Source of the DNA: Planctomycetota bacterium
GTDB taxonomy: Bacteria > Planctomycetota > UBA1135
Direction: 5' to 3'
NCBI GenBank assembly: GCA_003696625.1
Contig: RFGR01000132.1
Location: forward strand, 1,909-65,908
DNA: 64,000 nt
Positions 10,963 to 26,872 of this stretch are shown piece by piece (within the stretch, counting starts at the first letter, position 1; every line of letters begins with the position of its first letter). Below the pieces are notes generated by a model. It was not told where the DNA came from, ran no database searches, and worked only from the letters and a program-made list of their open reading frames with translations. Both the position numbers and the translations under genes were made by a program.

Positions 10963-11792
10963 CCCCGGCCCTCTTCGACAGTCACTGCCACCTGAGCTGG
11001 GAGGAGGCCGAGCACCCGGTCGCCGACACCCTGGAGCGCGCCCGGGCCGCCGGCGTGCTCGACCTCCTCTGCGTCGGCGTCGACCTGGCCAGCTCGCGGC
11101 GGGCGGCCGAGATCGCCGCCGCCGAGCCCGGGGTGCGGGCCAGCGCCGGCATCCATCCCAACGACCTGCCGCTCGCGCCCGGCGCTCTCGGCCGCGAGCT
11201 GGCCGGACTCGAGCGGCTGCTCGCCGGCGGCGGCTTCGCGGCGGTCGGCGAGACCGGCCTCGATCGGCACTGGGATCGGGTTCCGGCCGCGATTCAGGAG
11301 GAGGGCTTCCAGGCCCAGCTCGAGCTGGCGGCCGCGCACGGCCTGCCGGTGGTGATCCACTGCCGCGAGGCCATCGACCGAGTCCGCGACGTGCTCCGCT
11401 CCCTGGGCCGACCGGCGGCCGGAGTCATGCACTGCTGGTCCGGTCGGGCCGAGGAGGTGGACGACTTCCTCGACCTCGGGCTGCACGTCTCCTTCGCCGG
11501 CAACTTGAGCTACAAGCGGAACGAGGAGCTGCGGGAGGCCGCGCGCCGGGTGCCGCGGGACCGCCTGTTGCTCGAAACCGACGCCCCCTTCCTGGCCCCG
11601 CAGCCCCGCCGCGGCCGCCGCAACGAGCCGGCCTTCCTGCCGCACACCCTGGCCGCCCTGGCCGCCGCGCGCGGCGAAGACCCGGAGGCGCTCGCCGCCG
11701 CCACCCGCGCCAACGCCTACCGGTTGTTCGGACCGGCGCCGGCCGGCGGCGGCTCGGCGGCGGGAATGGTGACGATCTCGCCGGAGGCGTAG
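10959..11792 (+). CDS. tatD: TatD-family metal-dependent hydrolase/DNase
   Basis: ATG at 10959 overlaps the upstream TGA (ATGA); 277 aa. Motifs: FDSHCHL, VGETGLDRHW, VVIHCREA, MHCWSG and LLETDAPFL. Confidence 0.85.
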   Translation: MTPALFDSHCHLSWEEAEHPVADTLERARAAGVLDLLCVGVDLASSRRAAEIAAAEPGVRASAGIHPNDLPLAPGALGRELAGLERLLAGGGFAAVGETGLDRHWDRVPAAIQEEGFQAQLELAAAHGLPVVIHCREAIDRVRDVLRSLGRPAAGVMHCWSGRAEEVDDFLDLGLHVSFAGNLSYKRNEELREAARRVPRDRLLLETDAPFLAPQPRRGRRNEPAFLPHTLAALAAARGEDPEALAAATRANAYRLFGPAPAGGGSAAGMVTISPEA

Positions 11793-12220
11793 TCGAGCCA
11801 GTAGGTCTCGGCGCCGGAGTAGCCGGGCAGCTTCGGCCAGGCCCAGCAGCCGAGCGGTTCGCCGGCGGCCGAATGCTCCTCCCGGAAGCGGTAGCCGCCG
11901 CGGAGGACGACGCCGTCGCCGCGGAGGGCGAAGGCGCGCGGCATCAGACCACGCGGCAGACCGGCCCGGTCGTTCGCGAACAGGTAGCCGGCCAGCAAGG
12001 CCAGGGGCGGCCGGCGCCCGGAGGTGCGGGCGGCCCACACCTGGCCGCTCGAGTGGAGCATGCGCAGGGTCTCGCGCGCGGTCTCCTCGTTCAGCCGCCG
12101 CCGCGGCGTCAGCGCCCGGGGCAGCCCCCAGACCGAGGCGGCGGTGACCAGCGCGATCAGGATCAGGAGCTCGGCGAGGGAGAAGCCCCGCTCACTCCTC
12201 CTCGCGCGCCAGCTCGGCAA
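11717..12220 (-). CDS. type IV pilin-like / T2SS pseudopilin (prepilin-type N-terminal cleavage/methylation domain)
   Basis: N-terminus ...RARRSERG|FSLAELLILIALVTAASV fits the prepilin signature: Gly at -1, Phe at +1, Glu at +5, then a hydrophobic helix. The only in-frame start before the cleavage site is TTG at 12220, which overlaps the EF-G II gene by 29 nt, so the start is uncertain. Confidence 0.7.
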   Translation of the reverse strand: MPSWRARRSERGFSLAELLILIALVTAASVWGLPRALTPRRRLNEETARETLRMLHSSGQVWAARTSGRRPPLALLAGYLFANDRAGLPRGLMPRAFALRGDGVVLRGGYRFREEHSAAGEPLGCWAWPKLPGYSGAETYWLDYASGEIVTIPAAEPPPAGAGPNNR

Positions 12221-14159
12221 CGATCTTCTCCTGCAGATGCGCCGGGACCTGGTCGTAGTGGTCGAACTTCATGGTGAAGCTGCCCTCGCCGTGGGTCATC
12301 GAGCGCAACGGCGTGCTGTAGGTTTGCATCTCCGCCAGCGGCACCATCGCCCGGATGATCTGCATGTCGCCGACCGAGTCCATGCCGAGGATCTGGCCGC
12401 GCCGGGTGTTCAGGTCGCCGCTGACGTCGCCGAAGTACCGGCTCGGCACGGTGATCGCGACCTCCATCACCGGCTCGAGCAGGATCGGCCGGGCCTTGAG
12501 GAAGGCGTCGCGCAGGGCGCGGGCGCCGGCGATCTTGAAGCTGACCTCGTCGGAGTCGACGTCGTGAGCCTTGCCGTCGTAGAGCTCGACCACGATGTCG
12601 ACCACCTTGGAACCGGCGATGATGCCCTGTTCCATCTGCTCGAGGATGCCCTTCTCGACCGCCGGGATGAACTGGCGCGGGATGGCGCCGCCGACGATCG
12701 CGTCGATGAACTCGAAGCCGGCGCCGCGCTCGTTCGGGGCCAGCCGGATGAAGCACTCGCCGAACTGACCGGAGCCGCCGGTCTGCTTCTTGTGGCGGTG
12801 GTGGCCCTCGGCCCTGGCAGTGACCGTCTCTTGGTAGGCGATCCGCGGCACCGAGGTCTCGACGCCGACGCCGCGCGCCTCCAGCCGGTGGAGGCAGGTG
12901 CTGAGGTGGAGGTCGCTCAGGCCGCTGACCACCAGCTCGCGGGTGTCCGGATTCCGGAAGGTGACGAAGGTCGGATCCTCCTTGGCGATCTTGGCCAGCT
13001 CGGCGCCGATCTTCTGCTCGTCGTTGCGGCTCTTCGGCCGCACCGCCAGGCTGGTGAAGGGCTCGGGCAGGCCGAAGTCGAAGGGCTCGGCCTCGCCTTC
13101 GGAGACGATCGTGTCCCCCACCGCCAGCTCCTCGACCCGGGTGACGGCGACGATCGCGCCCGGGCCGGCGCTGTCGATCGGCTTCAGCTCCTTGCCGAGC
13201 AGGGTGGAGAGACCGGAGAGCTTGAGGTTCTTGCCGCCGCGCGGGCTGGGCACGCTCATGTCCACCCGGAGGGTGCCCTGCAAGACCCGCAGGTAGCTGA
13301 TCTGGCCGAGGTGCTTGTCGGACAGCACCTTCCAGACCCGGGCGACCAACCGCTCGTCGGCGCCGCCGCCGGCCACCGCCGCCCCCTTGACGACCTCGAG
13401 CTGCTGGGCCGCGGTCGGCATCTGCTCGGCCAGGAATCGCGCCAGTTCGGACACGCCGATCCCCCGGACCGGATCGACGAAGAAGAGCGGCGCCAAGGTG
13501 CCGACCGCCATCGCCGAGGGCAGGGCGGCGGCGAGGTCGTCTTCGCCGACCTCGCCCTCCTCCAGGTAGCGCTCCATCAGCGCGTCGTCCGATTCGACGA
13601 TGGCGTCGACGAGCTGCGAACGGTACTCGCTGTCCGGGTCGGAAACGACCTCGCCGACCGCGGAGAAGCCGGGGCCGACCTGATCGGGCAGCGTGAACGG
13701 CACCACCGACGGGCCGAACCGCTGGCGCAGGTTGGCGAGGACGGCGCCGAGGTCGAGGTTCTCGTGGTCGGCCTTGGTCACCACCACCGCCCGCGCCAGT
13801 TTGTGCTCCCCGGCGGCCTGCCAGAGCCGCTGGGCGTGGAACGGCATCCCCTCGTTGCGGGCCGAGACGCAGACGACCGCGCAGCCGGCCGCGCCCATCG
13901 AAGTGAGGGCGTCGGCCAAGAAGTCCGGATAGCCGGGCGTGTCGATCAGATTCAGCCCCGCCTTCGGGACGTGGACGACGGCGGCGCCGAGGCTGTGCTT
14001 CTTCTCCTGTTCCTCGGGCGTGAAGTCGCACAGGGTGGTGCCGTCGTCCACCGAGCCTTGCCGGCTGGTGAGACCGAAGTGATGGGCCAGGGCCTCGACC
14101 AGGGTGGTCTTGCCGGCGTCGGAGTGGCCCAGGAAGGTGGCGTTGCGGTAGTCGGTCAT
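12192..14159 (-). CDS. elongation factor G paralog (EF-G II-like translational GTPase)
   Basis: 655 aa. Divergent G1 NATFLGHSDAGKTTL, G3 LIDTPGYPDF and G4 VVVTKADH, followed by EF-G domains II-V (for example VSGLSDLHL and EPVMEVAITVP). This is the second EF-G-type gene in the window, besides the fusA in the str operon. Confidence 0.85.
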   Translation of the reverse strand: MTDYRNATFLGHSDAGKTTLVEALAHHFGLTSRQGSVDDGTTLCDFTPEEQEKKHSLGAAVVHVPKAGLNLIDTPGYPDFLADALTSMGAAGCAVVCVSARNEGMPFHAQRLWQAAGEHKLARAVVVTKADHENLDLGAVLANLRQRFGPSVVPFTLPDQVGPGFSAVGEVVSDPDSEYRSQLVDAIVESDDALMERYLEEGEVGEDDLAAALPSAMAVGTLAPLFFVDPVRGIGVSELARFLAEQMPTAAQQLEVVKGAAVAGGGADERLVARVWKVLSDKHLGQISYLRVLQGTLRVDMSVPSPRGGKNLKLSGLSTLLGKELKPIDSAGPGAIVAVTRVEELAVGDTIVSEGEAEPFDFGLPEPFTSLAVRPKSRNDEQKIGAELAKIAKEDPTFVTFRNPDTRELVVSGLSDLHLSTCLHRLEARGVGVETSVPRIAYQETVTARAEGHHRHKKQTGGSGQFGECFIRLAPNERGAGFEFIDAIVGGAIPRQFIPAVEKGILEQMEQGIIAGSKVVDIVVELYDGKAHDVDSDEVSFKIAGARALRDAFLKARPILLEPVMEVAITVPSRYFGDVSGDLNTRRGQILGMDSVGDMQIIRAMVPLAEMQTYSTPLRSMTHGEGSFTMKFDHYDQVPAHLQEKIVAELAREEE

Positions 14160-14221
14160 CGGGGACAGGGGAGGATGGGACCGCCGGCCCGGCGCGGGTC
14201 CCGGCGGCCAAGCGGAGCGGC

Positions 14222-14250
14222 GGGGCCGCGCAGGATACCCGCGCGGCCCC
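14222..14250 (-). terminator. GC-rich stem-loop (10-bp perfect stem GGGGCCGCGC/GCGCGGCCCC, 9-nt loop) downstream of the OmpA-like gene
   Basis: Read directly in the 127-nt gap between the OmpA-like stop (14287) and the EF-G II start (14159). No U-tract follows on the minus strand, so terminator function is uncertain. Confidence 0.35.
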
Positions 14251-14286
14251 GCCCCGTGCCCGGGGAGGATCCGGTTTCCCGCCCGC

Positions 14287-14982
14287 TCAGTCCAGGACGA
14301 GGATCTCGACCCGGCGGTTGGCAGCCTTGTTCTCGGCGGAGTCGTTCGGAACCTTCGGCGCCCACTCGCCGTAGCCGGCGACCCGCAGGGCCGAGGGATC
14401 GATGCCCAGGTCCTTGCCGAGGAAGTCCGCCACCGCCATCGCCCGCTCGATCGACAGGCGCAGATTGGACCCCCATTTCGACTTCTTGATCGGATCGTTG
14501 TCGGTGTGGCCCTCGATCCAGAAGGTCTTGCCGGCGTAGTCGCTGGCCAGGATCCCGGCCACCTGCTTCAGGCTCTTCCGGCCCTGATCGTTCAGGGTGG
14601 CCGAACCGGAGGGGAAGGTGATCGCCGACGGCAGCTCGAGAACGATCACCTCGCCGCGACGGGAGACGTTGACGCCGCTGCCCTCGAGGCGGGCGCGGAG
14701 GTCCTCGACCTCGGCGTCGGCGGCGCGTTGGGCGGCCTCCATCGCCGACAGCCGCTGGCTCAGTTCGCGGTTGGCCGCCTCGGCCTGGGCGAGCTGGTCG
14801 CGCAGTTCGGCGGTCTGGGCGCGGACCCGGTTGCGCTCGGCCTCGAGCCGACTCCGCTCCTGGCGGGCGATCTCGAGTTGGCGGTCCTGGTCGGCGATGG
14901 TCTCCTCCATCTCGGCGGTCTGGCAGGCCGCCGGCAACAGGAGGAGCGGGAGGAGGAGGGTGAGGAGTCGGTTGCGCTTCAT
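14287..14982 (-). CDS. OmpA/MotB-domain lipoprotein with a long N-terminal coiled coil
   Basis: Internal ATG (in frame with ORF 14287..15954) gives 231 aa starting MKRNRLLTLLLPLLLLPAAC-QTAE. About 90 aa are heptad-like and Q/E/R/A-rich (DRQLEIARQERSRLEAERNRVRAQTAELRDQLAQAEAANRELSQRLSAMEAAQRAADAEVEDLRARLE). An OmpA_C domain follows: FPSGSATL, GHTDNDPI, NLRLSIERAMAVADFL and NRRVEILV. Confidence 0.85.
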   Translation of the reverse strand: MKRNRLLTLLLPLLLLPAACQTAEMEETIADQDRQLEIARQERSRLEAERNRVRAQTAELRDQLAQAEAANRELSQRLSAMEAAQRAADAEVEDLRARLEGSGVNVSRRGEVIVLELPSAITFPSGSATLNDQGRKSLKQVAGILASDYAGKTFWIEGHTDNDPIKKSKWGSNLRLSIERAMAVADFLGKDLGIDPSALRVAGYGEWAPKVPNDSAENKAANRRVEILVLD

Positions 14983-15002: not shown

Positions 15003-15986
15003 TCAGCGGATCCAGGACTGGATCCACTCCGGCCAGGTCTGGAGGTAGAAGTGGTGGGTCGCCCCCGGGGCGAGCAGGACGAAGGCGGTGCCGAGCACCA
15101 ACGGGGGGCCGAAGGGGATCTGCCGGCCGAGCAGCCAGCCGAGATGGACGGTGCTCCGCAGGCTCCGGGCCCGACCGCGCCGGAGGCGGCGACGATGGAC
15201 GACGAGGATCATGCGGAGAATGTTCAGCAGGCCGAGTACGGCGCCGACGACGACGCCGGTCATCAGAGTCCAGGCCGCGCCTTCCAGGCCGACCAGACAG
15301 CCGACGGCGGCGAGGAGCTTGACGTCCCCGAAGCCGAGGGCTTCCTGTCCGAGAAGATAGGAAAACAAGGCCCTGATTCCAAATAGCAAAAGGAAGGCCC
15401 CGCCCCCGCCGACCGCGGCGGAGGCCAACGCCAGCAGGCGGGGCGGATCCTCCGGGCCGAGGCCGAGCAGCGCCGCCCCCCAGGGCACGGCCCCGGGCTG
15501 CCAGAGGTGGAAGGCCGGGACCAGGGCCGCCGCCAGCAGCCCGAACGGAACGCCGCCGAGGGTGATCTGGTCCGGCAGCTCCAGGTGGCCGAAATCCACC
15601 CCGGCGGCGATCCAGAGGGCGGTCAGGGCGACGAGGAGCAGCACCAGCGCCGCCGGCCCCTCGGCCGCGGCCCAGGTCTGGCCGGCGAGCGGAAAGAGAA
15701 GGGCCAGCCCGACCTCGTTCAGCAGGTAGAGGGCCCCGATCCGGGTCCCGCAGCTCCGGCAGCGCCCGCGCAGGAGCAGATAGCTGAGGAGCGGCAAATT
15801 GTCGGACCAGCGCAGCCGGTAGCCGCAGGAGGGACAGAAGGACCGGACCGGGCGGGTCAGCGACAAACCCTCCCGCGGCAGCCGGTAGATCGCCGCCGAG
15901 GCGAAGGAACCGGCCACGGCCCCGAACAGGGCCAGAAAACCGTTCCACAGCCAAGGCGTCCGGCGCAGCTCCTCCCAGACCTCCAT
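15003..15986 (-). CDS. pilD: prepilin peptidase / N-methyltransferase (peptidase A24, PilD/GspO family)
   Basis: 327 aa with ATG start. N-terminal Cys cluster FCPSCGYRLRWSDNLPLLSYLLLRGRCRSCG, multiple TM helices, and catalytic-Asp context ALGFGDVKLLAAVG. Confidence 0.9.
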   Translation of the reverse strand: MEVWEELRRTPWLWNGFLALFGAVAGSFASAAIYRLPREGLSLTRPVRSFCPSCGYRLRWSDNLPLLSYLLLRGRCRSCGTRIGALYLLNEVGLALLFPLAGQTWAAAEGPAALVLLLVALTALWIAAGVDFGHLELPDQITLGGVPFGLLAAALVPAFHLWQPGAVPWGAALLGLGPEDPPRLLALASAAVGGGGAFLLLFGIRALFSYLLGQEALGFGDVKLLAAVGCLVGLEGAAWTLMTGVVVGAVLGLLNILRMILVVHRRRLRRGRARSLRSTVHLGWLLGRQIPFGPPLVLGTAFVLLAPGATHHFYLQTWPEWIQSWIR

Positions 15987-16026: not shown

Positions 16027-16788
16027 TCACCCGGCGCCGCGCAGTCCGAGTCGGCGATCGGCGGGGCGAAGCGGCCGGCCGCCGATTCCCTCCAACCGAT
16101 CGGGCAGCTCCAGCCGCCGCCAGCCGCTCCAGAGGCCGACGCGGAGCCGGAGCCGGGACCCGTCGCGGCGGTTCTCGATCAGTTCGAGAGGGACCTGGCG
16201 CGAGGGTCCGGAGCCGGCCGGCGGCGTCAGCTCGGCCGGGGCCAGGGTCCGGGGATCGACCGGGCCGCTCAGGTCCAAGACGACGGTGCCGTCGGCCCGG
16301 ACCTCGAGGTTGCGACCGGCCGCCCCGAGCGAGAGCAGGCGGAGTTCCTCCGGCCCGGCGGCGCTGCCGGCCAGGGCGGCCGGGTCGTCGGCCGCGGCGG
16401 TTCGGAAGACCAACCGGACGGTTCGCTCGAGGATCGATCCGTCGGCGGCGCCCACCGCCGCCAACCGCGGCAGGCCGACCAGCTCGAGCCGCCAGGCCCG
16501 GCCCGGCGCCAGGCCGGCGTCCTCCAGGTCGGGGCGGCAGGGCAGGGCGGGATGGAGGACCAGGAAACGCCCGGCCACCTCGGCCCGCACCCGGGCCTCC
16601 CGACCATCCTCCGCCGACAGCGACCACGCCCCCCGCCGAAGCCCGGAGGCCAGCGGCCGGTCGAACTCCAGCCGAAGGGGCGCATCCAGGGCCACCGGCC
16701 GGCCGTCCCGGCCCGGCCAGTCCAGGAGGCGCAACGAGCCCGGCTCGCTCGCGCCGGAACAGGCCGGCAGGAGCGAGAGCAGCAGCAA
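16027..16788 (-). CDS. small lipoprotein with Ig-like (SbsA/Big_5-type) modules, function unknown
   Basis: 253 aa with lipobox LLSLLPAC-SG. It carries the same motif type as the N-termini of A-D (ALDAPLRLEFDRPLASGL; TVVLDLSGPVDPRTLAP). The only upstream in-frame start is TTG at 16788, which leaves an unusually short signal peptide, so the start is uncertain. Confidence 0.6.
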   Translation of the reverse strand: MLLLSLLPACSGASEPGSLRLLDWPGRDGRPVALDAPLRLEFDRPLASGLRRGAWSLSAEDGREARVRAEVAGRFLVLHPALPCRPDLEDAGLAPGRAWRLELVGLPRLAAVGAADGSILERTVRLVFRTAAADDPAALAGSAAGPEELRLLSLGAAGRNLEVRADGTVVLDLSGPVDPRTLAPAELTPPAGSGPSRQVPLELIENRRDGSRLRLRVGLWSGWRRLELPDRLEGIGGRPLRPADRRLGLRGAG

Positions 16789-16871: not shown

Positions 16872-19800
16872 CTACCAGACCAGCGGCACCTTGATCAGGT
16901 GCAGGCTGGGACGCTCGCTGTTCACGGTCACGCCGCCGCCGCCGGCATTGATGTCGAAGGTGACCCGGTAGCGGAGGAAGCGCTTGCCGACCAGATCAGC
17001 CAGGTCGCTGGTCCAGGCGGTCGGAGTGCCGGGCAGGCCCGAGCCGGCGACCGCCTCGTCCGCTCCCTGGAACTCGAACACCACCGAGGCCGAGTCGGGC
17101 AGGCGGGCCTTCTGACCGGAGGTCTCGATCCGGAAGAACTTGGGCCGCAGCTCCCAGACCGGATTGCCGGGATTCACGGCCAGCAGCATGCTGCCGTCGG
17201 CCTCGAGGGTGGTCAGGGTGAGTCGGTCGGCGGCCCGGTTGTAGCTGGCCGAGACGACCTCGAAGGTGGCGCTGCCCGTACTGTCGGGCAGGAAGTCGTA
17301 GCCGACCAGCAGCGCCGGGTTGCGCTCGAACATCCGGGCCGTGGTGATCGACCCGAAGGCGGCGGAGACGTTCGGCAACACGACCTGGTGGGCGCTGTAA
17401 GAGGCGCCGTTGACCCCGACGTTGCTGCCGCTCGCGATCGCCGCCAGCGGCACCACCATCGAGTTGGCTCGGTTGACCGAGCCGTCGGTGGTCGAGATGC
17501 CCTGGAAGGCGAGCAGCGAGTGGGCGTAGTCCGGGTAGTCGTTGGCCGGGATCGGATCGCGCAGACCGGCCAGGCCGGTGTCGATCCACTTGGACTGGAA
17601 CTGCGACTTGGGCGCGAAGTCCGGAATCAGCGCGTAGGGCCGCGGCTCGAAGTAGAGGTCGAGCATCTCCTCGAGCCGATCGGTGTCGATCGGCCCGTCG
17701 ACCACCCCGTGGCGCAGGTAGTCGAGGATCGCGGCCTCGGCGTCGGGGTGCCAGCCGATGTCGGTGGCCGGTTCCGGCACGTGAACCTGGATGACGCCGT
17801 TGGCGCCGGCGCCGCCGCGGCCGATCATGAAGTCGGAGTTGCCGTCGGGGGTGCCGCCGCTGAGGGTGATCTCCTCCGAGTAGGCCCAGCCGCGCCGGCC
17901 GCCGAGGGCCTGGCAGACCTCGGGGGCGACCGCCGGCGGCGAGTTGACCGGGTCGGTGCCGACGTCGATGCCGGACAGGTCCAGGCCGGTGGCCGACTGC
18001 AGGATGATGTGGCCGCCGGCGCCGCCGCCGGAGCCGGAGACTTGGCGGGTCAGATTGGTCGACCCCTCGCCGAGCGACTCACCGCCGTTGCCGGAGCCGC
18101 CGTTGGCGAGCAGCTGGCAGTTCGGACCGAGGATGATCGGGCCGACGGCGAGGATCTGGACCTGGCCGCCGCCGCCGCCGCCGGGCGCGCCCTTCCAGTA
18201 CCGGAAGGTCCAACCGTAGGGGAAGTTGGCGTCCGGGAAGAAGGTGGCGAGCGGATCGAGGAAGTTGTCGCCGTCCAGGTCGAGCCGCCAGACCAGCGAG
18301 GCGTCGCCGCTGGCGCCGCCGCCGGCGCCGGCCCAGGGGGCGGTCAGCTCGCCCTCGGTCCGGGTGCCGGTGTAGGGATTCCAGCGGCTGCCGAGGAAGT
18401 CGTCGTCGACCAGGCCGGAGAAGATCGGGTTCTGGGCGAAGCCCGGATCCGGGCCGTTGGTCGGGTGGCCGAACTTGAACGGCGGGGTGGCCTGGGTGGT
18501 CCAGGCCGGATCGAAGCCGTCGACGCGGTCGTTGGCGTCCTCGTCGTAGGCCTGCTCCTCCATGCCGAGGCCGCCGTAGTCGTCGTCGTTGTTGGCCAGC
18601 GGCGGCGGCGGCGACAGGGGCGAGTCCTGGTAGCTGTTGCCGCGCTTGCCGTCCTCGGCGCCGGTGAAGTAGGCCTCGATGTCGGCCTGGGTCGCGAAGT
18701 GGGTGTGGCGGTCGGAGCGGACGTCCGGACCGGCGTCGTCGTGCGAGTCGGGGTTGGCCACCCCGCTCCAGCGGTCCCAGGTCACGGCCCGGTTCGGCCC
18801 GGCGGCGAACTGGCCGCCGGCACCGCCGCCGGCGATCAGGGAATAGCCCTGGTTCTTCACCACCCCGGTCGAGGTCCAGTTCACGCAGCCCTCGCCCCCG
18901 CCGCCGCCGAGGCCGAGGCCGAAGGCGCCGGTGCCGGAGCCGCCGCGCAGGGTCTCGGTGGCGGTCTCGTAGGAGGCGTCGCCGCCGGCGCCCCCACCCG
19001 GGCCGCCGGCGCCGCCGGGTTCGGGAACGGTCGGCTGGGACAGGGCCTGCGGCGTGAGCGCGTCCTCGCCGCTGGCGTCGAGAACCCCGAGGATCGACAC
19101 CGTGCCGGTGGCGTAGATGATCAGCGGGTTGTCGCCGTGGGCGGTGACGACCGCGTTCTCCTCGATCGTGAAGTCGTCCACCTCGAGGACGCCGTCGACC
19201 ATGGTGAAGTTGCGCCCGTTCGAATCCTGGAAGGAGATCGTGCCGGAGGTGTCGAGATCGAGGGTGGCGAAACCGGCCAGCACGAAGTCATGGTCGGCCG
19301 GCGGCGGCTGGCCCGGGAAGTCGAAGCTGGCCGTCATGCTGCCGGTCGAGAAGTCGGCCGGCGGGAAGGCCAGGGCCGCGGTCGGGTCGACGAAGGTGCT
19401 CGAGGAGAAGTCCTCGACGATCTCGTCGACCGTCTCGTCGGCCTCGTTCCAGTTCGGATCGTTGTAGTAGGCGGTGAGGGTCGGGGTGGCGTGCGACGCG
19501 GAGGCGAGTTCCTGCGAATTCGTCTCCCCGGCCAGGTCCTGGAAGTCGGAAGAGACCCGCACCTGGAGGTTCCGGTTCGGCGGCAGGATACCGGCGATCT
19601 GGAACTGGATCAGGGCCCCCGTCGGCGTGCAGTTGTCGATCAGGACCAGGCGCCCCGGCACCTTGTTGGTGGGACTGAAACTGTTCTCGTTGCCGGAGCC
19701 GATCTCGCCGTCGGAATAGAGCACGAACAGACGGTCGGTGTTCAGATTGTCCGGCGAGGCGTCGATCGACTGGTTGAAGCGGATCTCGATCGCGCTCTCG

Positions 19801-20408
19801 CCGCCGGCCGAGAACAGGTTCAGTCCGTCCGGGAAGACCACCGGATCGACGGCGGCGAAGCGCGGCGGCCCGACCGTGGTATCGATGAACAGCGGCTCGA
19901 CCGGGTCGATCGGGGTGCGGAAAGAGCGGGTCAGGCCGATCTTCAGCCCGTGCCCGGCCTGGTCGCGAACGACCGCGTGGCCGAAGCTGTTCACCGTCGG
20001 CAGGGCGATCTCGTAGTGGTAGCCGCCCGGAACGAAGGCGCCGTTCGCGTTCTGCAGGTCGGTCGGGCAAGCCGGCTGGAAGACGACCACCCGGCCTTCG
20101 GAGCCGGCCCGCAGGTAGAAGCTGCCGGTCACCGGCTGGCCCTGCACCTCGGGATCGACCGGGCGGATCAGGATCGAGCTGAAGCCGAGCGAGTCCGGAT
20201 CGACCGGGTGGTTGAAGGTGATGACGATCGGCCGGTTCAGGGCCCAGACGTCGCCGTCGTTCATGTTGATCGACTCGACCTGGAAGGTGCCGGCGTTGGC
20301 CGCCTGGTTGCGGCTGATCGACGAGCCGCCGCCGCAGGAGGCGAGCAGGAGACCGGCGCAGGCGAGAAGACCGAGAAGCGGGGAAGGGGCGTGGGGGGGC
20401 CTGGTCAT
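16872..20408 (-). CDS. giant lipoprotein C (1178 aa): Ig-like N-terminus, Gly-rich beta-helix-like core, unassigned family
   Basis: ATG at 20408 is in frame with ORF 16872..21824 and lies 5 nt after the stop of B. N-terminus MTRPPHAPSPLLGLLACAGLLLASC-GGG. Motifs NRPIVITFNHPVDPDSL and AIEIRFNQSIDASPDNL. Gly-rich blocks include EPGGAGGPGGGAGGDASY, GLGGGGGEG, GAPGGGGGGQVQILAVG, SGSGGGAGGHIILQSATG and GRGGAGANGVIQVHV. C-terminus KRFLRYRVTFD...LIKVPLVW. Confidence 0.85.
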   Translation of the reverse strand: MTRPPHAPSPLLGLLACAGLLLASCGGGSSISRNQAANAGTFQVESINMNDGDVWALNRPIVITFNHPVDPDSLGFSSILIRPVDPEVQGQPVTGSFYLRAGSEGRVVVFQPACPTDLQNANGAFVPGGYHYEIALPTVNSFGHAVVRDQAGHGLKIGLTRSFRTPIDPVEPLFIDTTVGPPRFAAVDPVVFPDGLNLFSAGGESAIEIRFNQSIDASPDNLNTDRLFVLYSDGEIGSGNENSFSPTNKVPGRLVLIDNCTPTGALIQFQIAGILPPNRNLQVRVSSDFQDLAGETNSQELASASHATPTLTAYYNDPNWNEADETVDEIVEDFSSSTFVDPTAALAFPPADFSTGSMTASFDFPGQPPPADHDFVLAGFATLDLDTSGTISFQDSNGRNFTMVDGVLEVDDFTIEENAVVTAHGDNPLIIYATGTVSILGVLDASGEDALTPQALSQPTVPEPGGAGGPGGGAGGDASYETATETLRGGSGTGAFGLGLGGGGGEGCVNWTSTGVVKNQGYSLIAGGGAGGQFAAGPNRAVTWDRWSGVANPDSHDDAGPDVRSDRHTHFATQADIEAYFTGAEDGKRGNSYQDSPLSPPPPLANNDDDYGGLGMEEQAYDEDANDRVDGFDPAWTTQATPPFKFGHPTNGPDPGFAQNPIFSGLVDDDFLGSRWNPYTGTRTEGELTAPWAGAGGGASGDASLVWRLDLDGDNFLDPLATFFPDANFPYGWTFRYWKGAPGGGGGGQVQILAVGPIILGPNCQLLANGGSGNGGESLGEGSTNLTRQVSGSGGGAGGHIILQSATGLDLSGIDVGTDPVNSPPAVAPEVCQALGGRRGWAYSEEITLSGGTPDGNSDFMIGRGGAGANGVIQVHVPEPATDIGWHPDAEAAILDYLRHGVVDGPIDTDRLEEMLDLYFEPRPYALIPDFAPKSQFQSKWIDTGLAGLRDPIPANDYPDYAHSLLAFQGISTTDGSVNRANSMVVPLAAIASGSNVGVNGASYSAHQVVLPNVSAAFGSITTARMFERNPALLVGYDFLPDSTGSATFEVVSASYNRAADRLTLTTLEADGSMLLAVNPGNPVWELRPKFFRIETSGQKARLPDSASVVFEFQGADEAVAGSGLPGTPTAWTSDLADLVGKRFLRYRVTFDINAGGGGVTVNSERPSLHLIKVPLVW

Positions 20409-20413: not shown

Positions 20414-23400
20414 TTACTGCACGCTCCAGGACATGCCGAGAGCGTCCAGTTCCGGCGAGAGGTTCTGTTCGATGTTCGACACGAAGGTGAGGCGGAACTG
20501 GAAGAACTTGTAGTCCCGTCCGCCGGGGTCGTTCAGCAGGCTCTGGATGTTCGAGCGCCAACCGGTGGTGTCGCTCATGGCGCCGCAGCCCGTGTCCGGG
20601 TATTCGCCGTAAAAGTCGAGCTGGCCGGCGTCGTCGAGCGGCGACGGGGCGCCGCCGCAGTTGTTGGCCACTTCGACGCCGCGAACGTGGATCTGGACCT
20701 CGGTGTTGGGCGGCTGGAACTCCGGAGCCGGTTCCTGGATCAGCGGGGTGATCGCGGTCGGCACGCCGCCGAACGAGAACCAGTGGGTGTAGACCCGCGA
20801 GATCCGCAGCACGAAGTCCACCTGATGCCAGTAGAGCTCGGGGCCGTAGCCCTTGGTCCGGGCTCCGGTCGTGGTGTTGTAGCCGCCCTGGGGGTTCATG
20901 CCGCCGGACTGGCGGTCGTCCGGCAGCACCTGGTGCCAGTTGCCGCCGGCGTCGCGGCCGCCGGCCGAGAAGACCCGGAAAGCAGGCAGCGCCGACGAAC
21001 CGCACATGATCTGGACCTGGAAGCCGTTGGCGCCGTAGAAGTTGCCGCGCGGCCAGGCCCGGAAGCGGGCCAGCAACGGCAGCCCGATCGAGGGGATCTC
21101 GTTGGCGGCGAAGACTTTGTTGCCGAGCTGGACCGTGTCCGGCGGCACGCCGGGGCCGGCCTTGCCGCCCAGATAGGCCGGGCCGTCGAGATTGGCCTTC
21201 GAGCGGATGCCGGTGTCGCGGTAGGTGTAGGTGGTGGTGAAGTCGCCCCAGGGCATGTACTTGTTGCCGCTGACGGCGGTGAACACCTTGGTCGCGGTCA
21301 GCTGGTAGGAGCCGCTCCAGGTCACGACCTCGTCCAGGTCCGGAAAGCCGAGGATGCTGTCGTCGAAGTCGTTGTTCCGGCGCAGACCGGAGTTCGGCCA
21401 GCTCGGATAGCCGGAGGACGGACTGATGTAGTCGTCTGGCGACCGGACGGCGTGGGACAGGGCCAGCGAGAAGGCGTGGAAGTTGTCCTCGAGCACGTTG
21501 CCGCCGAACGGGGCCCAGTTCAAGCCTTCGACGTCCAGGTTGAACTCGGCCACCGAGAGCAGGCCGAGGCCCAGGATGTGGTACGGCCAGCAGGTCATCA
21601 GCACCGCCCCGGTCGGGGTCAGCGGCGTCATGATGCCCTGCGAGAACTGGATCCGCTGGGCGACGAACGGGTTCATCGGGTCCGCCACCCGCGAGAACCG
21701 GACCAGGTCCCGGCCGCGCAGGACGCCCGGCTCGAAGACGAACTGGCCGGCGTACTCGGACCTGCTGTCGCCGTTCTCGTCCAGGCTGTTGAAGCGCAGG
21801 GCGAAGTAGCGGTCGGTCGGCCACGGGGTGTAGGAGCCCGGCGTGATCAGCTCCTGCTGCCCTTCGTTGCCGGCCACGAAGCCGGTGAACGCCAGTTTGT
21901 TGCCGGCCAGGTCCTTGATGCCGTCGTCGCCGTCGCGCAGGGCGATGGCGAAGCGGAGGCCGTTGCCCTCGTCGTGGGCGTCGGTGAAGCCGGCGCTCGG
22001 AGCCAGGGTGAAGGTGCGGCCGTCGGGCGAGATGCCGAGCGGGCCGGACAGGATGCGGCCGCTGCCGGAGCTGGTGCCGGAGACCGAACCGCCGGCGACG
22101 GCGACCGTGTAGCCGAGCTGACGGTCGATGTACTCGCCGACCGTCTCCGGATCGGGATAGCCGAACTGGCGGGCGGCGTAGATCTCGGCCAGGTAGGTGT
22201 CGTCCGGGTCGGCCGGCGGCGACGGATTGACGACGTAGGAGCAGATGATGAACGACTCCAGCGCCTTGACCGTGGACGGGTCGACCGGTTCGCTGAAGGT
22301 GACCGTGACCGAGGAGTAGGGATCGATGCCGCGGGCCGGCAGGCCGTATTCGGGTTCCGGGGTGAAGCGGAGGTAGCAGAGCTGGAGGTCGGCGTCGGCC
22401 GAAGTGTAGCCGGTGGTGATCCGCCCGGTCAGGGGCGATCCGGCGTAGTTGCCGACCGGGATGCTGTCCTCGCCCTCCAGGACCACGCCGGCGACGACGT
22501 AGGCGTTCGGGTCGCCGGCGTCGACGATCCGGGTCACCGTCAGCAGGCCCTGACCGATCTCGAACACGTCCCCCACCTTGGGCGTCAGCGGCCGGCAGCT
22601 GGCCGCGTCGATGGCGTAGGTCAGGGTGCGCGAGCTGCCGGAACCGGCGACGTTGCTGATCGAGACGGCCAGTTCGGCGACCACCGTCGGCCGGATCCGG
22701 TCCTGCATGAAGCCGTTGTAGAGGTCGTTCTCGTTGCCGGTCCGGAAAGCGCGGAGGACGACCTTGTCCAGACCCGGGGTCAGCTCGACCGGGTCGGAGT
22801 CGGTCGGCTGCAGGGTGTGGGTGTGCCCCAGGTTCATCAGCACCTGGAACTGGCCGTTGTCGAAGTCGACCTTGGTCGGGATGCGGATGACCGCGTTCGG
22901 CGTCTCGCTGTCGAGCGAGGCCGGGAAGCCGATCCCGTTCTGGGGAATGCCGAGGGCGGCCTCGTCGAACCTCGAGATGGTCGGGTCGATGATCACCACG
23001 CCCTTCGGCTTGCCGTCCCGGCCGATCACCGAGTTGTCGACGATGTACCGCACTTCCTGGTTGACCACCGGCGGGTCCCCGACCTGGACCTTGATCGTCT
23101 CCGAGTTGACCAGGTTCGGATCGACCATCTCCGAGAACTGGAGCCGGATCGCTCCGTTGCGCGCCACCATGGTGAAGGGCGGCGAGGCGTTCAGGCCCTT
23201 GGTGGAGACGGCCGGCAGGCCCGAGGTGGCCGCGGCCAGCAACTGGTCGAAGGCGGCAGTCCCGGCCGGCTGGTGGATGGTCAGGGTCTGGGACTGGGTG
23301 AGCGGGTTGACGCCGATCGTGTAGGTGCCGGCTTGGTCTTGCAGGCTCTCTCGAATCAGGACGTCGCGGGCGACCAGGGCGCCGTTGACGTCGAGGACGT

Positions 23401-23569
23401 CGACCAGCCGGCCCCAGGTCACCTCCTCGAGGAAGAACTTCGCCCGGCCGCTGCCCGCAATGTTGCTGGCGTCACGCGAGCTGGCGTTGAAGCAGCCGGG
23501 CAGGACGAGGACCAGCAGGGCGCCGGCCAGGCCGACGCGGCGGCAAGCGGAGCGGAGTTCGAAGTTCAT
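20414..23569 (-). CDS. giant lipoprotein B (1051 aa), tandem paralog of A, unassigned family
   Basis: ATG at 23569 is in frame with ORF 20414..25789 and lies 23 nt after the stop of A. N-terminus MNFELRSACRRVGLAGALLVLVLPGC-FNAS. It is collinear with A over its whole length, for example GRLVDVLDVNG, NPLTQSQTL, NGAIRLQFSEMVDPNLV, VTFSEPVDPSTV, LPLLARFRAWPRG, PAFRVFSAGGRDAGGNWHQVLPD, YWHQVDFVLRISRVYTHWF and YKFFQFRLTFV. Confidence 0.85.
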   Translation of the reverse strand: MNFELRSACRRVGLAGALLVLVLPGCFNASSRDASNIAGSGRAKFFLEEVTWGRLVDVLDVNGALVARDVLIRESLQDQAGTYTIGVNPLTQSQTLTIHQPAGTAAFDQLLAAATSGLPAVSTKGLNASPPFTMVARNGAIRLQFSEMVDPNLVNSETIKVQVGDPPVVNQEVRYIVDNSVIGRDGKPKGVVIIDPTISRFDEAALGIPQNGIGFPASLDSETPNAVIRIPTKVDFDNGQFQVLMNLGHTHTLQPTDSDPVELTPGLDKVVLRAFRTGNENDLYNGFMQDRIRPTVVAELAVSISNVAGSGSSRTLTYAIDAASCRPLTPKVGDVFEIGQGLLTVTRIVDAGDPNAYVVAGVVLEGEDSIPVGNYAGSPLTGRITTGYTSADADLQLCYLRFTPEPEYGLPARGIDPYSSVTVTFSEPVDPSTVKALESFIICSYVVNPSPPADPDDTYLAEIYAARQFGYPDPETVGEYIDRQLGYTVAVAGGSVSGTSSGSGRILSGPLGISPDGRTFTLAPSAGFTDAHDEGNGLRFAIALRDGDDGIKDLAGNKLAFTGFVAGNEGQQELITPGSYTPWPTDRYFALRFNSLDENGDSRSEYAGQFVFEPGVLRGRDLVRFSRVADPMNPFVAQRIQFSQGIMTPLTPTGAVLMTCWPYHILGLGLLSVAEFNLDVEGLNWAPFGGNVLEDNFHAFSLALSHAVRSPDDYISPSSGYPSWPNSGLRRNNDFDDSILGFPDLDEVVTWSGSYQLTATKVFTAVSGNKYMPWGDFTTTYTYRDTGIRSKANLDGPAYLGGKAGPGVPPDTVQLGNKVFAANEIPSIGLPLLARFRAWPRGNFYGANGFQVQIMCGSSALPAFRVFSAGGRDAGGNWHQVLPDDRQSGGMNPQGGYNTTTGARTKGYGPELYWHQVDFVLRISRVYTHWFSFGGVPTAITPLIQEPAPEFQPPNTEVQIHVRGVEVANNCGGAPSPLDDAGQLDFYGEYPDTGCGAMSDTTGWRSNIQSLLNDPGGRDYKFFQFRLTFVSNIEQNLSPELDALGMSWSVQ

Positions 23570-23592: not shown

Positions 23593-26500
23593 TCAGCCGA
23601 GCCGCCAGGCCAGCCCGAGGCCGTCGAGAACGGCCTGGTTGCCCCGGTCGACGTCGTTGACGAAGGTGATCCGGATCTGCAGGAAGCGGTAGTTGTGCCC
23701 CTCCAGGTCGGTGAAGTCCGAGGTCCAGTCCCCGGGGGTCGAGACCTGGCCGCTGGCGTTGTCGTAGTCGCCGTAGAAACCGAAGCCGGTCGCGGCGCTG
23801 AGCAGCGGCGACGGATCGGTGGTCGGGTTGTTCGGGTGGTCGACCTGGACGGCGCCGCGATACTCGATCTGCACCGAGGTGCCGACCGGTTGATTGCCGA
23901 TCTCCGGCTCGAGCTGGACGCCGACCACCTGGCCCGGGCCGAGGGTGCCGCCCATGTCGAACCAGTGGGTGTAGACCCGCGAAACCTTGAGCACGAAGTC
24001 CACCTCGGTCCAGTAGAACAGCGGGTCGGTCGGGTCGGTCGGCTGGCCGGTGCCGACCACGTAGCCGCCGACCGGTTGGGTACCGCCCTTGGCAGCGTTG
24101 TCCGGAATGACCTGGTGCCACTGGCCGGAGGCGTCCTGGCCGCCTTCGGAGTAGATCCGGAAGGCCGGCACCGAAGTCTGGACGTTCTGGGTCAGCAGGG
24201 CGGTGGTCTGGAACTTGTTCGTACCCAGGCGCTCGCCGCGCGGGTAGCAGCGGAAACGGGCCAGCAGCGGCAGGGCGATCGACGGCGCCTTCCCGGCGCC
24301 GTAGAGGCCGGCGTCGGGGTGGGTCGAGGTGGCGGCGCCGATCGACAGCGGCGATTCGGCGGTGCCGGTGTAGCTCGGCGGGATGGTCGTGTCCCGCCAG
24401 GTGTAGGTGTCCTGGAAGTCCGGCAGCGGCAGCATCGTGTTGCCGGAGTCGGAGGTGAACAGGTTCAGGCTCGAGATCGAGTAGCTGGAGTCGAAGACGA
24501 TCTTCTCGTCGAAGTCCGGGTAGCCGAGGATGTTGGCGTCGAAGCTCTCGGTCACCAGGCCGGAGAAGGGCCAGATGATCACGCCGTTGATGACCTGCTC
24601 GTCCGGCATGTATTTGGCGTGGGCCAGGGCGAGCGAGAAGCGCGGGTAGAGGTCGTCGAAGACCACGCCGCCGAGCGGCACCCAGCTCATGCCGGCGACG
24701 TCGAGGTTGAATTCGCCCAGGTTGCGGTAGCCGAAGCCGAGGTCGTGCGGCCGGATGGTGGTCATGACCACCGCCCCGGCCGGCGACAGCGGCGCGTAGG
24801 GCGGGTTCCAGACCGGAACCGTGCTGGCGTTGACCGAGATGCCGGCGCCGACGTACTGGTTGGTGTTGTCGGCGTCCCGGGAGAAGCCCTCGGCCGCCCG
24901 ACCGGTCAGCTTGCCGGTCTGGTAGCCGACCTGGCCGGTGTATTCGGGCTGGCCGTCGTCGTCCTCGTCGAGGCCGTTGGCGCGCAGGGAGAAGGCCTTG
25001 GTCCGGTTGGCGGCGGTCAAGCCGCCGCCGCCGACCACGGTGAGCTGGTTCTCGACCGCCACCGAGGGCAGCGGGGTGCCGGCGACGAAACCGCTCAGGT
25101 CGACCGGGTTGCCGGCCATGTCCGTGATCCCGTCCGGACCGCCGCGCAGGGCGACCGCGAACTGGAGGAAGGGGTCGCTGTTGGGTTCGGCCATCCCGGT
25201 CAGCGGCGTCAGGGCGAAGCTGCGCGAGTCGATGTCGGCCTCGAGCGGACCGAACAGCACCCGGCCGCCGAACTCCGAACTCGCCAGGGTGCCGGTGGGG
25301 CCGACCTTGAGGTGGTAGCCCCGCTGGCGGTCGATGTAGTCGGCGACGGACTCGGTCGGGAACAGGGTCGGATGGCGGTAGTAGGCGGCCTCGGCGCCGA
25401 AGGCGTCGTCCATCTCGAAGGCCGTCACGACGAAGGAATGCATCGAGGTGACGGTGCGGGGATCGATCGGCTCGCTGAAGGTGGCCCGGATCTGGGTGTT
25501 GAACGGATCCAGCGCCAGCGGCTGGCCGGGGGTATAGACCGGATCGGGGGTGATCCCGAGGTAGCAGACCTGCAGGTTGGCGTCGGCGATCGTGTAGGCG
25601 GTGTTGAGGCGGGCGGCGAGGGACAGGCCGGTCCCGGGCGGCAGGCCGCTGGCCGGGTCGGCCGGCTCCAGCATTCGGCCGCGGACGACGTACGCGGCCG
25701 GGTTGCCCGAGCTGAGGACGGCGGTGACCAGGAGCAAGGCGTCGGAGAAGTCGAAGACGTCCCCCGGCTTGGGCGTCATGTCCCGGCAATAGGCGGTGTC
25801 GATCGAATAGGTCAGCTCCCGGATCGGCGAGCTGGTGCCGTTCGGGGCCGCGACCTCGGCGACGGTGACGTCCTGGATGCCGATCAGCTTCGGCGGGATG
25901 AGATCCTCGAGGAAGCCGCGGAACTCGTCCTGGTCGTTGCCGGCCCGGAAGACCTGGACCAGCACCGGGAAGCCGCCGCCGCTGGTCTCGATCGGGTCGG
26001 AGAAGCGGTTCTTGATCGTCCGGTTGCCCTTGAGGTTGGTCAGCACCACCGGCTGGCCGTAGAGCAGATCCTTCTCGGTCGGGATCCGGATCTTGATGTT
26101 GTCGTTGACGCCGTCGAGCGAGGCCGGCCAGCCGGTCGGGTTGGCCGGCAGGCCGAGGGTCGCGGACTCGCGGGCACTGATCGTCGGGTCGAGGATCACG
26201 ATGCCGGTCCGGGTCCGGCGGTCGTTCTTGACCACCATCCGCACGGTCAGCTCCTCCAGATTGGATCCGGCACCGTTGAAGACCTGGATCGAGGACGGCG
26301 TCACCGTGGCCGGGTCGAGCTGGTCGGAGAAGCGAAGCTGGATGGCGGCGTTCCGCGGCACCATCGTGTAGGGCGGCGGATCGAAGGCGCCCTTCCGGTC
26401 GAGGGGCTCGAGCCCCGTCTTGGCCGCGTTCAGGAGGATCGTGAAGCCGCCGGCGGACCGGGGCTGGAGGATCTTGAGGGTCTCCTCCTGAGTCAGCGGA

Positions 26501-26820
26501 TTGGTCGACAGCTCGTAGCTGATCCCGTCGATGACCAGATCCGGCCGGATCAAGACGTCCTGCTCGACCAGGACGTCGTCGACGTCGACCACGTCGACCA
26601 GCCGGCCGTAGAGGACGCTCTGCAGGTAGAGCTGGCTGTTGGCGCCGAAGGTGGAGGCCGGCGGCTGATCGCGGTTGAAGCAGCCGGCGAGCAGGACCAG
26701 GCCGGCGACGGCCAGAGACCGGACGAAGCGAAGCGACGAAGGGGACTTCACGGGAGGATTCTTGCTGTGAGTCGACACGGCGGCTGGTCCGGGCGGTCTC
26801 CCGGGGCCGGATTCCCCCAT
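23593..26820 (-). CDS. giant lipoprotein A (1075 aa), tandem paralog of B, unassigned family
   Basis: ATG at 26820 (residue 40 of ORF 23593..26937) lies downstream of the sigma-54 promoter. N-terminus ...SLRFVRSLAVAGLVLLAGC-FNRD carries a lipobox. Motifs NAAIQLRFSDQLDPATV and IRATFSEPIDPRTV. C-terminal motifs LPLLARFRCYPRG, PAFRIYSEGGQDASGQWHQVIPD, YWTEVDFVLKVSRVYTHWF and YRFLQIRITFV. An alternative GTG start at 26751 is possible. Confidence 0.8.
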   Translation of the reverse strand: MGESGPGRPPGPAAVSTHSKNPPVKSPSSLRFVRSLAVAGLVLLAGCFNRDQPPASTFGANSQLYLQSVLYGRLVDVVDVDDVLVEQDVLIRPDLVIDGISYELSTNPLTQEETLKILQPRSAGGFTILLNAAKTGLEPLDRKGAFDPPPYTMVPRNAAIQLRFSDQLDPATVTPSSIQVFNGAGSNLEELTVRMVVKNDRRTRTGIVILDPTISARESATLGLPANPTGWPASLDGVNDNIKIRIPTEKDLLYGQPVVLTNLKGNRTIKNRFSDPIETSGGGFPVLVQVFRAGNDQDEFRGFLEDLIPPKLIGIQDVTVAEVAAPNGTSSPIRELTYSIDTAYCRDMTPKPGDVFDFSDALLLVTAVLSSGNPAAYVVRGRMLEPADPASGLPPGTGLSLAARLNTAYTIADANLQVCYLGITPDPVYTPGQPLALDPFNTQIRATFSEPIDPRTVTSMHSFVVTAFEMDDAFGAEAAYYRHPTLFPTESVADYIDRQRGYHLKVGPTGTLASSEFGGRVLFGPLEADIDSRSFALTPLTGMAEPNSDPFLQFAVALRGGPDGITDMAGNPVDLSGFVAGTPLPSVAVENQLTVVGGGGLTAANRTKAFSLRANGLDEDDDGQPEYTGQVGYQTGKLTGRAAEGFSRDADNTNQYVGAGISVNASTVPVWNPPYAPLSPAGAVVMTTIRPHDLGFGYRNLGEFNLDVAGMSWVPLGGVVFDDLYPRFSLALAHAKYMPDEQVINGVIIWPFSGLVTESFDANILGYPDFDEKIVFDSSYSISSLNLFTSDSGNTMLPLPDFQDTYTWRDTTIPPSYTGTAESPLSIGAATSTHPDAGLYGAGKAPSIALPLLARFRCYPRGERLGTNKFQTTALLTQNVQTSVPAFRIYSEGGQDASGQWHQVIPDNAAKGGTQPVGGYVVGTGQPTDPTDPLFYWTEVDFVLKVSRVYTHWFDMGGTLGPGQVVGVQLEPEIGNQPVGTSVQIEYRGAVQVDHPNNPTTDPSPLLSAATGFGFYGDYDNASGQVSTPGDWTSDFTDLEGHNYRFLQIRITFVNDVDRGNQAVLDGLGLAWRLG

Positions 26821-26857
26821 CCTAGGGAGTCCGGGTACGGGGATCAGGTCCCATTTC

Positions 26858-26872
26858 GCAACAACCGTGCCA
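26858..26872 (-). promoter_or_regulatory. sigma-54 (RpoN) -24/-12 promoter upstream of lipoprotein A
   Basis: The minus strand reads TGGCACG-GTTG-TTGC-G. This matches the consensus TGGCACG-N4-TTGCW at every specified base except the final W. The -12 GC lies about 38 nt upstream of the ATG at 26820, inside the 156-nt gap after pyrB-I. Confidence 0.65.

Follow-up and report, generated by a model that had tools for sequence, protein, structure and literature searches.

Giant lipoprotein genes in a conserved, tight series with pilD behind a putative sigma-54-type promoter at the head of a type IVa pilus locus of Planctomycetota

A stretch of 64,000 nucleotides from contig RFGR01000132.1 of a Planctomycetota bacterium (lineage UBA1135, assembly GCA_003696625.1), in the following called the window, carries on its minus strand a series of genes for three giant lipoproteins (A, B and C), a small lipoprotein of the immunoglobulin (Ig) type (D), the prepilin peptidase PilD and a coiled-coil lipoprotein of the OmpA type. 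Judged by gene content and gene order, comparison with related genomes shows that the UBA1135/“Saltatorellota” clade has an old type IVa pilus locus, to whose promoter-proximal half the window corresponds, and that a conserved and tightly spaced gene series lies behind a putative sigma-54-type promoter at the head of this locus. The pilus genes, PilD, the OmpA-type protein, the elongation factor G (EF-G) encoded downstream and the type of promoter are all ordinary. The unusual part is that, across a deep and largely uncultured clade, they are coupled to three or four giant lipoproteins which belong to undescribed families.

Genes in the window, which has a G+C content of about 72%, were called by six-frame translation and third-position G+C. 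A first-pass annotation had placed eight genes on the minus strand, from A to a pilin-like gene H, and their coordinates and gaps were reproduced exactly (Table 1). The intergenic gaps from A to the EF-G gene are 23, 5, 83, 40, 20 and 127 nt, and the EF-G gene is overlapped by H over 29 nt. For comparison, 79 loci were fetched around homologs of C in species-representative genomes, ten were added via protein look-ups, and the related loci were labelled by tblastn with the window proteins. “Planctomycetes bacterium UBA1135” is among them. Wiegand et al. placed the UBA1135 clade within the proposed phylum Saltatorellota, the cultured members of which are able to change their shape, possess peptidoglycan and carry genes for type IV pili (bioRxiv 10.1101/817700).

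The gene order (A/)B–C–D–pilD–ompA was found in about 36 loci and persists where C is only 27-33% and PyrB about 39% identical. In the close loci, of which there are about 15 with a C identity of 40-74%, the series comprises panK, a GTPase gene, pyrB, A, B, C, D, pilD, ompA, EF-G gene, H, a convergent tatD and a further giant lipoprotein gene, X. The distant loci number about 21, with identities of 27-33% for C, about 39% for PyrB and about 44% for EF-G. Here, pyrB is followed by usually one A/B-type gene, most often nearest to B, by C and by a long form of D; these loci continue with pilD, ompA, usually the second EF-G gene, pilT, pilB, pilC, the gene of a 262-280-aa pilin and a convergent tatD. 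On a closed 6.57-Mb contig, genes called independently encode three giant proteins (1059, 1144 and 1155 aa), then D, PilD, OmpA and EF-G, and after these PilT, PilB, PilC, a pilin and, in convergent orientation, TatD. The gap sizes at the junctions are approximate across loci; their medians are -4 nt for A–B, 16 nt for B–C, 7 nt for C–D, -4 nt for long D–pilD (a 4-nt overlap with the pilD start is common) and 19 nt for pilD–ompA. The largest gap of the cluster proper is found between ompA and the EF-G gene (median 114 nt, minimum 48 nt), and the median distance between pyrB and B amounts to 513 nt. In none of the loci examined is pilD separated from D. The order in about 36 loci and the tight or overlapping junctions bear out A to ompA as a conserved unit, and the proposed comparative test found A, B and C co-occurring with pilD and the OmpA-type coiled-coil gene in relatives.

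The kind of machinery is revealed by the distant loci. Their PilT matches TIGR01420 with 467 bits (cutoff 319), their PilB is the best match for TIGR02538 (623 bits), their PilC contains the T2SSF domain (3.5e-63) and their pilin the N_methyl domain (7e-9). A further ATPase of the PilT/PilU family is encoded upstream in distant relatives, between obg and the gene of a PDZ protein. This protein has about 529 aa and an N-terminal extension (L006 1992-3581, also L031, L032, L064 and L069), and its gene is absent from the same position in the window. Since pilT, pilB, pilC and the pilin gene are found downstream in the relatives, the locus is read as that of a type IVa pilus with retraction ATPases and not of a type II secretion system (T2SS). 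The genes expected of a type IVa pilus locus are thus recognised by sequence in the distant relatives, and the window retains pilD and H only. No homologs of PilB, PilT and PilC were found in the window, as had been suspected from its sequence alone, and the machinery is incomplete there because this lineage lost pilT, pilB and pilC from this site.

These findings bear on the model proposed in the first-pass annotation, according to which the giant lipoproteins are cargo of a pilus-related, T2SS-like machine, as is PulA in Klebsiella. The likeness to PulA and the Pul T2SS of Klebsiella oxytoca lies in lipoproteins of about 1000 aa encoded beside a prepilin peptidase and genes of a pilus-like machine, including one for a pilin-like protein. 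Furthermore, the relatives carry a GspE/PilB-type ATPase and a GspF/PilC platform protein, and the PilC homolog of the distant loci scores slightly higher on the GspF model than on the PilC models, in each case below the cutoffs. However, PulA is a pullulanase, whereas no glycoside hydrolase or other enzyme domain was detected in A, B or C by Pfam and NCBIfam, and the machine of the relatives has a PilT which, scoring above the NCBIfam cutoff and accompanied by the upstream PilT/PilU ATPase, marks a retractile type IVa pilus. Neither GspC/L/M nor a minor-pseudopilin set was seen in any of the loci, nor was a secretin, at which no search was aimed, and paralogs of C are encoded far from such machinery. 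The cargo idea, which rests on size and lipobox, is not supported, and we regard it as very improbable.

Upstream of A, the sequence TGGCACGGTTGTTGC matches the sigma-54 consensus exactly and is the sole exact match in the window. Within the window alone, one match was counted where 2.26 are expected with up to one mismatch, which is not above chance, and the element is therefore significant only through comparative data. In the interval between pyrB and the first giant gene, the expression [CT]GG[CAT]A[CT]N5TTG[CAT], which was refined after some of the counted sequences had been viewed, matches the coding strand in 29 of 30 syntenic loci and the reverse strand in none of the 30. The expectation is about 0.95, from a background of 0.046 matches per kb and strand over 2.87 Mb. 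For the best match to TGGCAC-N5-TTGCW in this interval, the mean score is 9.3 out of 11 on the coding strand versus 7.5 on the other. The motif also precedes seven of 18 stand-alone C paralogs, with about 0.5 expected, and three of six orthologs of X. A sigma-54-type promoter at the head of the locus, first proposed from the window match, which by itself is within chance, is thus well supported by the related loci, though not proven.

The GG-N10-TTG motif might also be the binding site of another regulator or a promoter of a different type. The window contains no recognised rpoN or gene of an enhancer-binding protein, and tblastn probes for both gave no match in 87 related loci; the -12 element reads TTGA or TTGT instead of the canonical TTGC in about half of the distant loci. 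In several close loci the upstream block is GGAAC, like the -35 box of extracytoplasmic function (ECF) sigma factors, and a second conserved hexamer, TAGGAT, is located downstream. The spacing, however, is exactly that of sigma-54, as ten bases separate GG from the G of the -12 block, and in 29 of 30 loci the motif shows strand specificity. An ECF promoter needs a spacer of about 16-17 nt to the -10 box and not 5 nt to TTGC, and the reading of GGAAC as an ECF -35 box was rejected on these grounds. Sigma-54 is generally known from Planctomycetes; Studholme and Dixon reportedly described sigma-54 and enhancer-binding proteins in this group in 2004, in Pirellula sp. strain 1. An origin of the motif other than sigma-54 is therefore judged to be most doubtful.

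In the leader, a hexamer TA[GAC][GC]AT occurs 31-46 nt downstream of -12 in nine of 11 close relatives including the window (window, L001, L002, L003, L012, L013, L019, L022 and L024). The TAGGAT-like hexamer resembles a sigma-70 -10 box with no consistent -35 partner, and it overlaps ATG 26820, the start of A in the first-pass annotation. Distant loci (e.g. L046, L050, L053 and L056) have 180-516 nt between -12 and the start codon, compared with 35-135 nt in close ones. Rfam detected no known RNA family or riboswitch in the leaders of the window and six distant loci, and a scan of the locus for sigma-70 promoter and terminator consensus sequences yielded nothing beyond shuffled controls.

The giant proteins A, B, C and X, together with the OmpA-type protein, are by signal peptide and lipobox predicted bacterial lipoproteins. 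The lipoboxes read LLAGC (A), LPGC (B), LLASC (C) and PAAC (OmpA-type protein), and the lipobox cysteine, which is C25 in C, is conserved to at least 90% in both the A/B and the C family alignments. The gene of A was confirmed, but a length of 1075 aa is less likely than one of 1052 aa, because a start at GTG 26751 gives a normal signal peptide of 23 residues. ATG 26820 was rejected, being located inside the conserved TAGGAT motif and having no start codon at its place in two orthologs. The NCBI record of A (Planctomycetota metagenome-assembled genome, locus tags D6702_) is a hypothetical protein of 1052 aa. A and B share 41% identity along the entire sequence, so that B is indeed a paralog of A. 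Three lipoproteins of more than 1000 aa had been counted in the range, and X is a fourth giant just beyond it. It has a signal peptide and a lipobox, MRRTSGLLLALGLLGMLPAC, reading MLPAC, carries a Big_5 domain and is 24% identical to the N-terminus of C over 449 aa; its position is retained in close relatives.

A, B and C had been called orphans, yet all of them belong to families which are confined to Planctomycetota. The A/B family has 24 word-indexed relatives and the C family more than 129, with several paralogs per genome; an exhaustive profile search with C yielded 1603 clusters (50% identity) at E <=0.001 and 427 at E <=1e-30. Members come from planctomycetal metagenome genomes, and for C also from the cultured Engelhardtia mirabilis, whose homolog (Pla133_20970) is a stand-alone C paralog and not part of a syntenic locus. 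No relative of A/B, C or the long D bears a name beyond generic labels such as “Ig-like domain-containing”. In Pfam and NCBIfam searches of the eight window proteins and 39 family members, the giant proteins gave Big_5 only, an Ig-like domain which, besides stray weak matches, is the sole Pfam family of A/B and C. Profiles of the A/B and C families found nothing among PDB sequences at E <=1. That the giants stand outside any named family is borne out by these searches. Simple scans for catalytic motifs (HExxH, CxxC, RGD and similar) gave no consistent match. A C-terminal motif shared by A/B and C, WTSD...RFLxYRxTF, was considered as a common sorting domain (BLASTP E 8e-5) and rejected, as it is absent from the profile-profile alignment, which covers the Big_5 domain only. 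Two stand-alone paralogs, one A-like and one C-like (L005 6910-9660 and L087 7965-9014), are preceded by genes of sigma-70/ECF-type regulators, one of them a fusion with a CarboxypepD_reg domain; family members outside the main locus may thus receive other regulatory inputs.

Structure prediction with a subsequent Foldseek search, one of the checks suggested for the giant proteins, was carried out for A and C, and no named family emerged. The model of C has a mean predicted local distance difference test score (pLDDT) of 92.2 and a predicted template modelling score (pTM) of 0.83. Its parts were read off the DSSP string and not from coordinates: Ig-like domains extend to about residue 350, short regular strands between about 375 and 445 suggest a solenoid, a glycine-rich core of about 450 residues contains many invariant glycines and conserved polar residues, and the C-terminal region appears as a beta-sandwich. 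Searched against PDB and BFVD, only the Ig-like part of C was matched, namely by the N-terminal domains of LdtMt2 and LdtMt5 and by SbsC. These matches span about 250-400 of the 1178 residues with query TM-scores of <=0.12, and in spite of a pLDDT of 92 no whole-fold match to C was found in either database. The AlphaFold2 model of A is all-beta (pLDDT 79.5, pTM 0.72), and its best query TM-score against PDB is 0.12, for Ig-like domains only. About 800 further residues of C and most of A remained without a Foldseek match (C versus PDB and BFVD, A versus PDB).

Between C and pilD, the small lipoprotein D is more variable. The start of D in the window is uncertain, because the only canonical start leaves just nine residues ahead of the lipobox cysteine. 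A lipobox is present in every D ortholog examined, so that the description as an Ig-like lipoprotein stands and the 253-aa start does not stand as firmly. A member of the D family was recognised in 12 of the 15 close loci; in the distant loci, D occurs as a form of about 600-650 aa with a Big_5 domain, for which at least 229 relatives were found. The pilD product is predicted to be an A24 prepilin peptidase: it matches A24_N_bact (7e-25) and Peptidase_A24 (9e-9) in Pfam, and the motifs GFGDVKL, DxxxxxLPD and CxxC...CxxC can be read in its sequence; NCBIfam gave no match. Both A24 domains and the cysteine and aspartate motifs agree with the initial assignment. Likewise, the coiled-coil OmpA lipoprotein was recognised correctly, having an OmpA domain at residues 122-223 (8e-17), the PAAC lipobox and a helical stretch at residues 21-99, where several Pfam families, unrelated to one another and mostly helical, match weakly, which fits a coiled coil. 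Its gene is located after pilD in most related loci.

The 127-nt gap between ompA and the EF-G gene does hold the predicted GC-rich hairpin with a 16-bp stem, and the fold of the whole gap (131 nt) has a z-score of -1.96. This hairpin is likely a terminator or attenuator between two transcription units. The gene behind it encodes a second EF-G, as the canonical fusA is located in the str operon. All five EF-G domains were found in the second EF-G by Pfam (EFG_IV 1.5e-40), and it scores 722 bits on PRK12740.1-5 of NCBIfam (cutoff 583), whereas the canonical fusA product scores 691 bits on TIGR00484 (cutoff 659) and, unlike the second EF-G, has no Pfam EFG_IV match at E <=0.01. The second EF-G may be of the EFG II or of the spd type (PMC3150367), and the two copies may form an spd-type pair. 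It is absent from at least five related distant loci, where pilT directly follows ompA or pilD, and for this reason it is considered an optional insert. The identity of the EF-G paralog was thus confirmed, but hairpin, larger gap and absence from at least five loci speak against its membership in the module, and it is best regarded as a housekeeping translation GTPase outside the envelope module.

For H, initially named a pseudopilin, a pilin-type leader (...RSERG|FSLAELLILIALV, i.e. RG|FSLAE) is followed by a hydrophobic helix, and the ortholog in L003 begins with MRKGFTLLE. The Pfam N_methyl score of 15.1 bits is below the cutoff of 21.2. H has weak colinear matches to the pilins of the distant loci (E 3e-4), shares their N-terminal helix and adjoins the convergent TatD gene, in the same slot as the 262-280-aa N_methyl pilin of those loci. 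Leader and helix are therefore accepted, and H is read from sequence and position as a remnant of the pilin gene of the locus. The 3′-ends of H and of the TatD gene (plus strand, 10959-11792) overlap convergently by 76 nt (11717-11792).

A sigma-54-type promoter downstream of pyrB would drive the genes of A, B, C, D, PilD and the OmpA-type lipoprotein as one unit, which the GC-rich hairpin would close, and a second unit would consist of the EF-G paralog and H. An enhancer-binding protein may activate sigma-54, and the lipoproteins would then be made together with PilD. The giant lipoproteins are presumably lipid-anchored envelope or surface proteins and may constitute a lineage-specific outer-membrane or surface module, or an adhesion partner of the pilus, which the OmpA-type protein would tie to peptidoglycan. 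PilD cleaves prepilins and not lipoproteins; the giant lipoproteins would not be its substrates and are probably not T2SS cargo either.

That the giant lipoproteins act together with the type IV pilus in the outer envelope is a proposal to which we give about even chances. It is favoured because the overlap of D and pilD is common, the two are nowhere separated in the loci examined and the housekeeping junctions are loose. Several points weigh against it. The flanking housekeeping genes obg, panK, GTPase, pyrB, EF-G and tatD are equally conserved in order, so that the adjacency to pilus genes could reflect frozen synteny and not shared function. C-type proteins occur in multiple copies and also stand alone in unrelated contexts far from pilus genes, which fits a surface-protein family better than a core part of a machine. 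No similarity of A/B or C to known pilus components was detected by sequence or by structure (PDB, BFVD). A secretin and pilMNOP genes were not seen near the cluster, where no search was aimed at them; in type IVa pilus systems, pilMNOPQ are mostly located at another site. To these points are added the reservations about the promoter given above, namely the rpoN and enhancer-binding protein searches, the -12 variants and the refined expression.

Some of these observations would also be explained if A/B, C, D and X were sigma-54-regulated coat or adhesin lipoproteins, similar to surface layer (S-layer) proteins, with pilD as a neighbour through frozen gene order only. The equal synteny of the housekeeping genes on both sides and of the EF-G gene in the middle agrees with this, as do the C paralogs that stand alone elsewhere, some of them with a sigma-54-like motif of their own. 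The only recognisable domain of the giants, Big_5, was first described in the S-layer protein SbsA, and the S-layer protein SbsC is among the weak fold matches. However, frozen order accounts poorly for the common 4-nt overlap of D and pilD, for tight spacing from A to the OmpA-type gene behind one promoter over a deep divergence, and for D and pilD being unseparated in all examined loci, while the housekeeping junctions (ompA–EF-G and pyrB–B) are loose. A surface coat without a role in the pilus is, on balance, possible and rather unlikely.

A stronger version of the proposed pilus role is that A/B, C and D with the OmpA tether are a new outer-envelope module of the type IVa pilus of Saltatorellota, which we consider unlikely. 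If true, this module could be specific to the lineage and replace or add to the secretin, pilotin and alignment complex, or it could serve as a pilus-coupled adhesion platform; it would contain, in C, a fold without a solved relative, and be switched on as a whole by sigma-54.

Compared with known type IVa clusters, such as pilA-pilB-pilC-pilD and pilT/pilU of Pseudomonas aeruginosa or the pil genes of Myxococcus xanthus, the window shares PilD and H, and its relatives have PilT, PilB, PilC and the pilin directly downstream. In Pseudomonas as in the locus described here, pilus genes are interleaved with housekeeping genes. To our knowledge, no pilus cluster with three to four genes for lipoproteins of 600-1200 aa translationally coupled to pilD has been described. 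In model type IVa systems, pilA is sigma-54-dependent through PilS/PilR, whereas in the present locus the motif stands in front of the lipoprotein-pilD operon, and the promoter expression had no match upstream of the pilin gene in related loci. The tip adhesins PilY1/PilC are likewise large non-pilin proteins (about 1000-1500 aa) of pilus loci, often with several paralogs per genome. A Pfam family covers their C-terminal beta-propeller, and minor pilins are encoded beside them. In contrast, A to D carry lipoboxes, and the propeller was found neither by Pfam in A, B, C and their relatives nor among the Foldseek matches listed for C and A. With Big_5 proteins (SbsA, SbsC and the N-terminal Ig domains of mycobacterial L,D-transpeptidases), the giants share only this recognisable domain. 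Sigma-54 has been linked broadly to pili, flagella and lipoproteins (Francke et al. 2011, PMC3162934); a promoter ahead of envelope and pilus-related genes fits this control of the bacterial exterior, and the families regulated here are undescribed.

Table 1. Features of the lipoprotein-pilD locus and its surroundings, in window positions.
Feature	Position	Strand	Remarks
giant lipoprotein A	23593-26820	minus	1075 aa from ATG 26820; likelier 1052 aa from GTG 26751
giant lipoprotein B	20414-23569	minus	1051 aa, paralog of A, lipobox LPGC
giant lipoprotein C	16872-20408	minus	1178 aa, N-terminal Ig-like domains, then large glycine-rich core
small Ig-type lipoprotein D	16027-16788	minus	253 aa, start uncertain
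prepilin peptidase / N-methyltransferase PilD	15003-15986	minus	327 aa, Pfam A24 domains
coiled-coil OmpA-type peptidoglycan-binding lipoprotein (predicted)	14287-14982	minus	231 aa, Pfam OmpA
second EF-G	12192-14159	minus	655 aa, NCBIfam PRK12740.1-5
type IV pilin-like H	11717-12220	minus	167 aa, pilin-type leader and hydrophobic helix
giant lipoprotein X	6852-9935	minus	about 1027 aa, separate unit beyond the convergent TatD gene
sigma-54-type -24/-12 element (putative)	26858-26872	minus	TGGCAC-N5-TTGC, exact consensus match
TAGGAT leader hexamer	26819-26824	minus	conserved in nine of 11 close relatives, window included
GC-rich hairpin	14219-14253	minus	16-bp uninterrupted stem, minimum-free-energy fold
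canonical fusA	60891-62954	minus	str operon; TIGR00484

The surroundings of the locus are of a housekeeping nature. Upstream of dnaX, the signal recognition particle (SRP) RNA gene and three tRNA genes are located at 39558-39657 (-), 39684-39901 (-) and 40442-40515 (-), and a ribosomal-protein operon with secY spans 46460-60695. The lipoprotein locus thus lies within a chromosomal region of strongly housekeeping character. Window genes outside the Pfam scan were identified by synteny with related loci or by their position in the ribosomal-protein operon.

Few bacterial machines have been studied as thoroughly as type IV pili, whose outer-envelope parts are commonly taken to be well catalogued. 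If the giant lipoproteins work with the pilus, they would represent a new class of pilus-associated envelope component. Such components could bear on shape-shifting, cell fusion and surface motility, traits for which the Saltatorellota clade is noted. If they have no role in the pilus, they would still form a large, conserved and co-regulated set of surface proteins, the main member of which has a confidently predicted fold without a solved relative. With Saltatorellus, Engelhardtia and Rohdeia, cultured relatives are at hand, at least one of which carries a gene of the C family, so that the question is testable.

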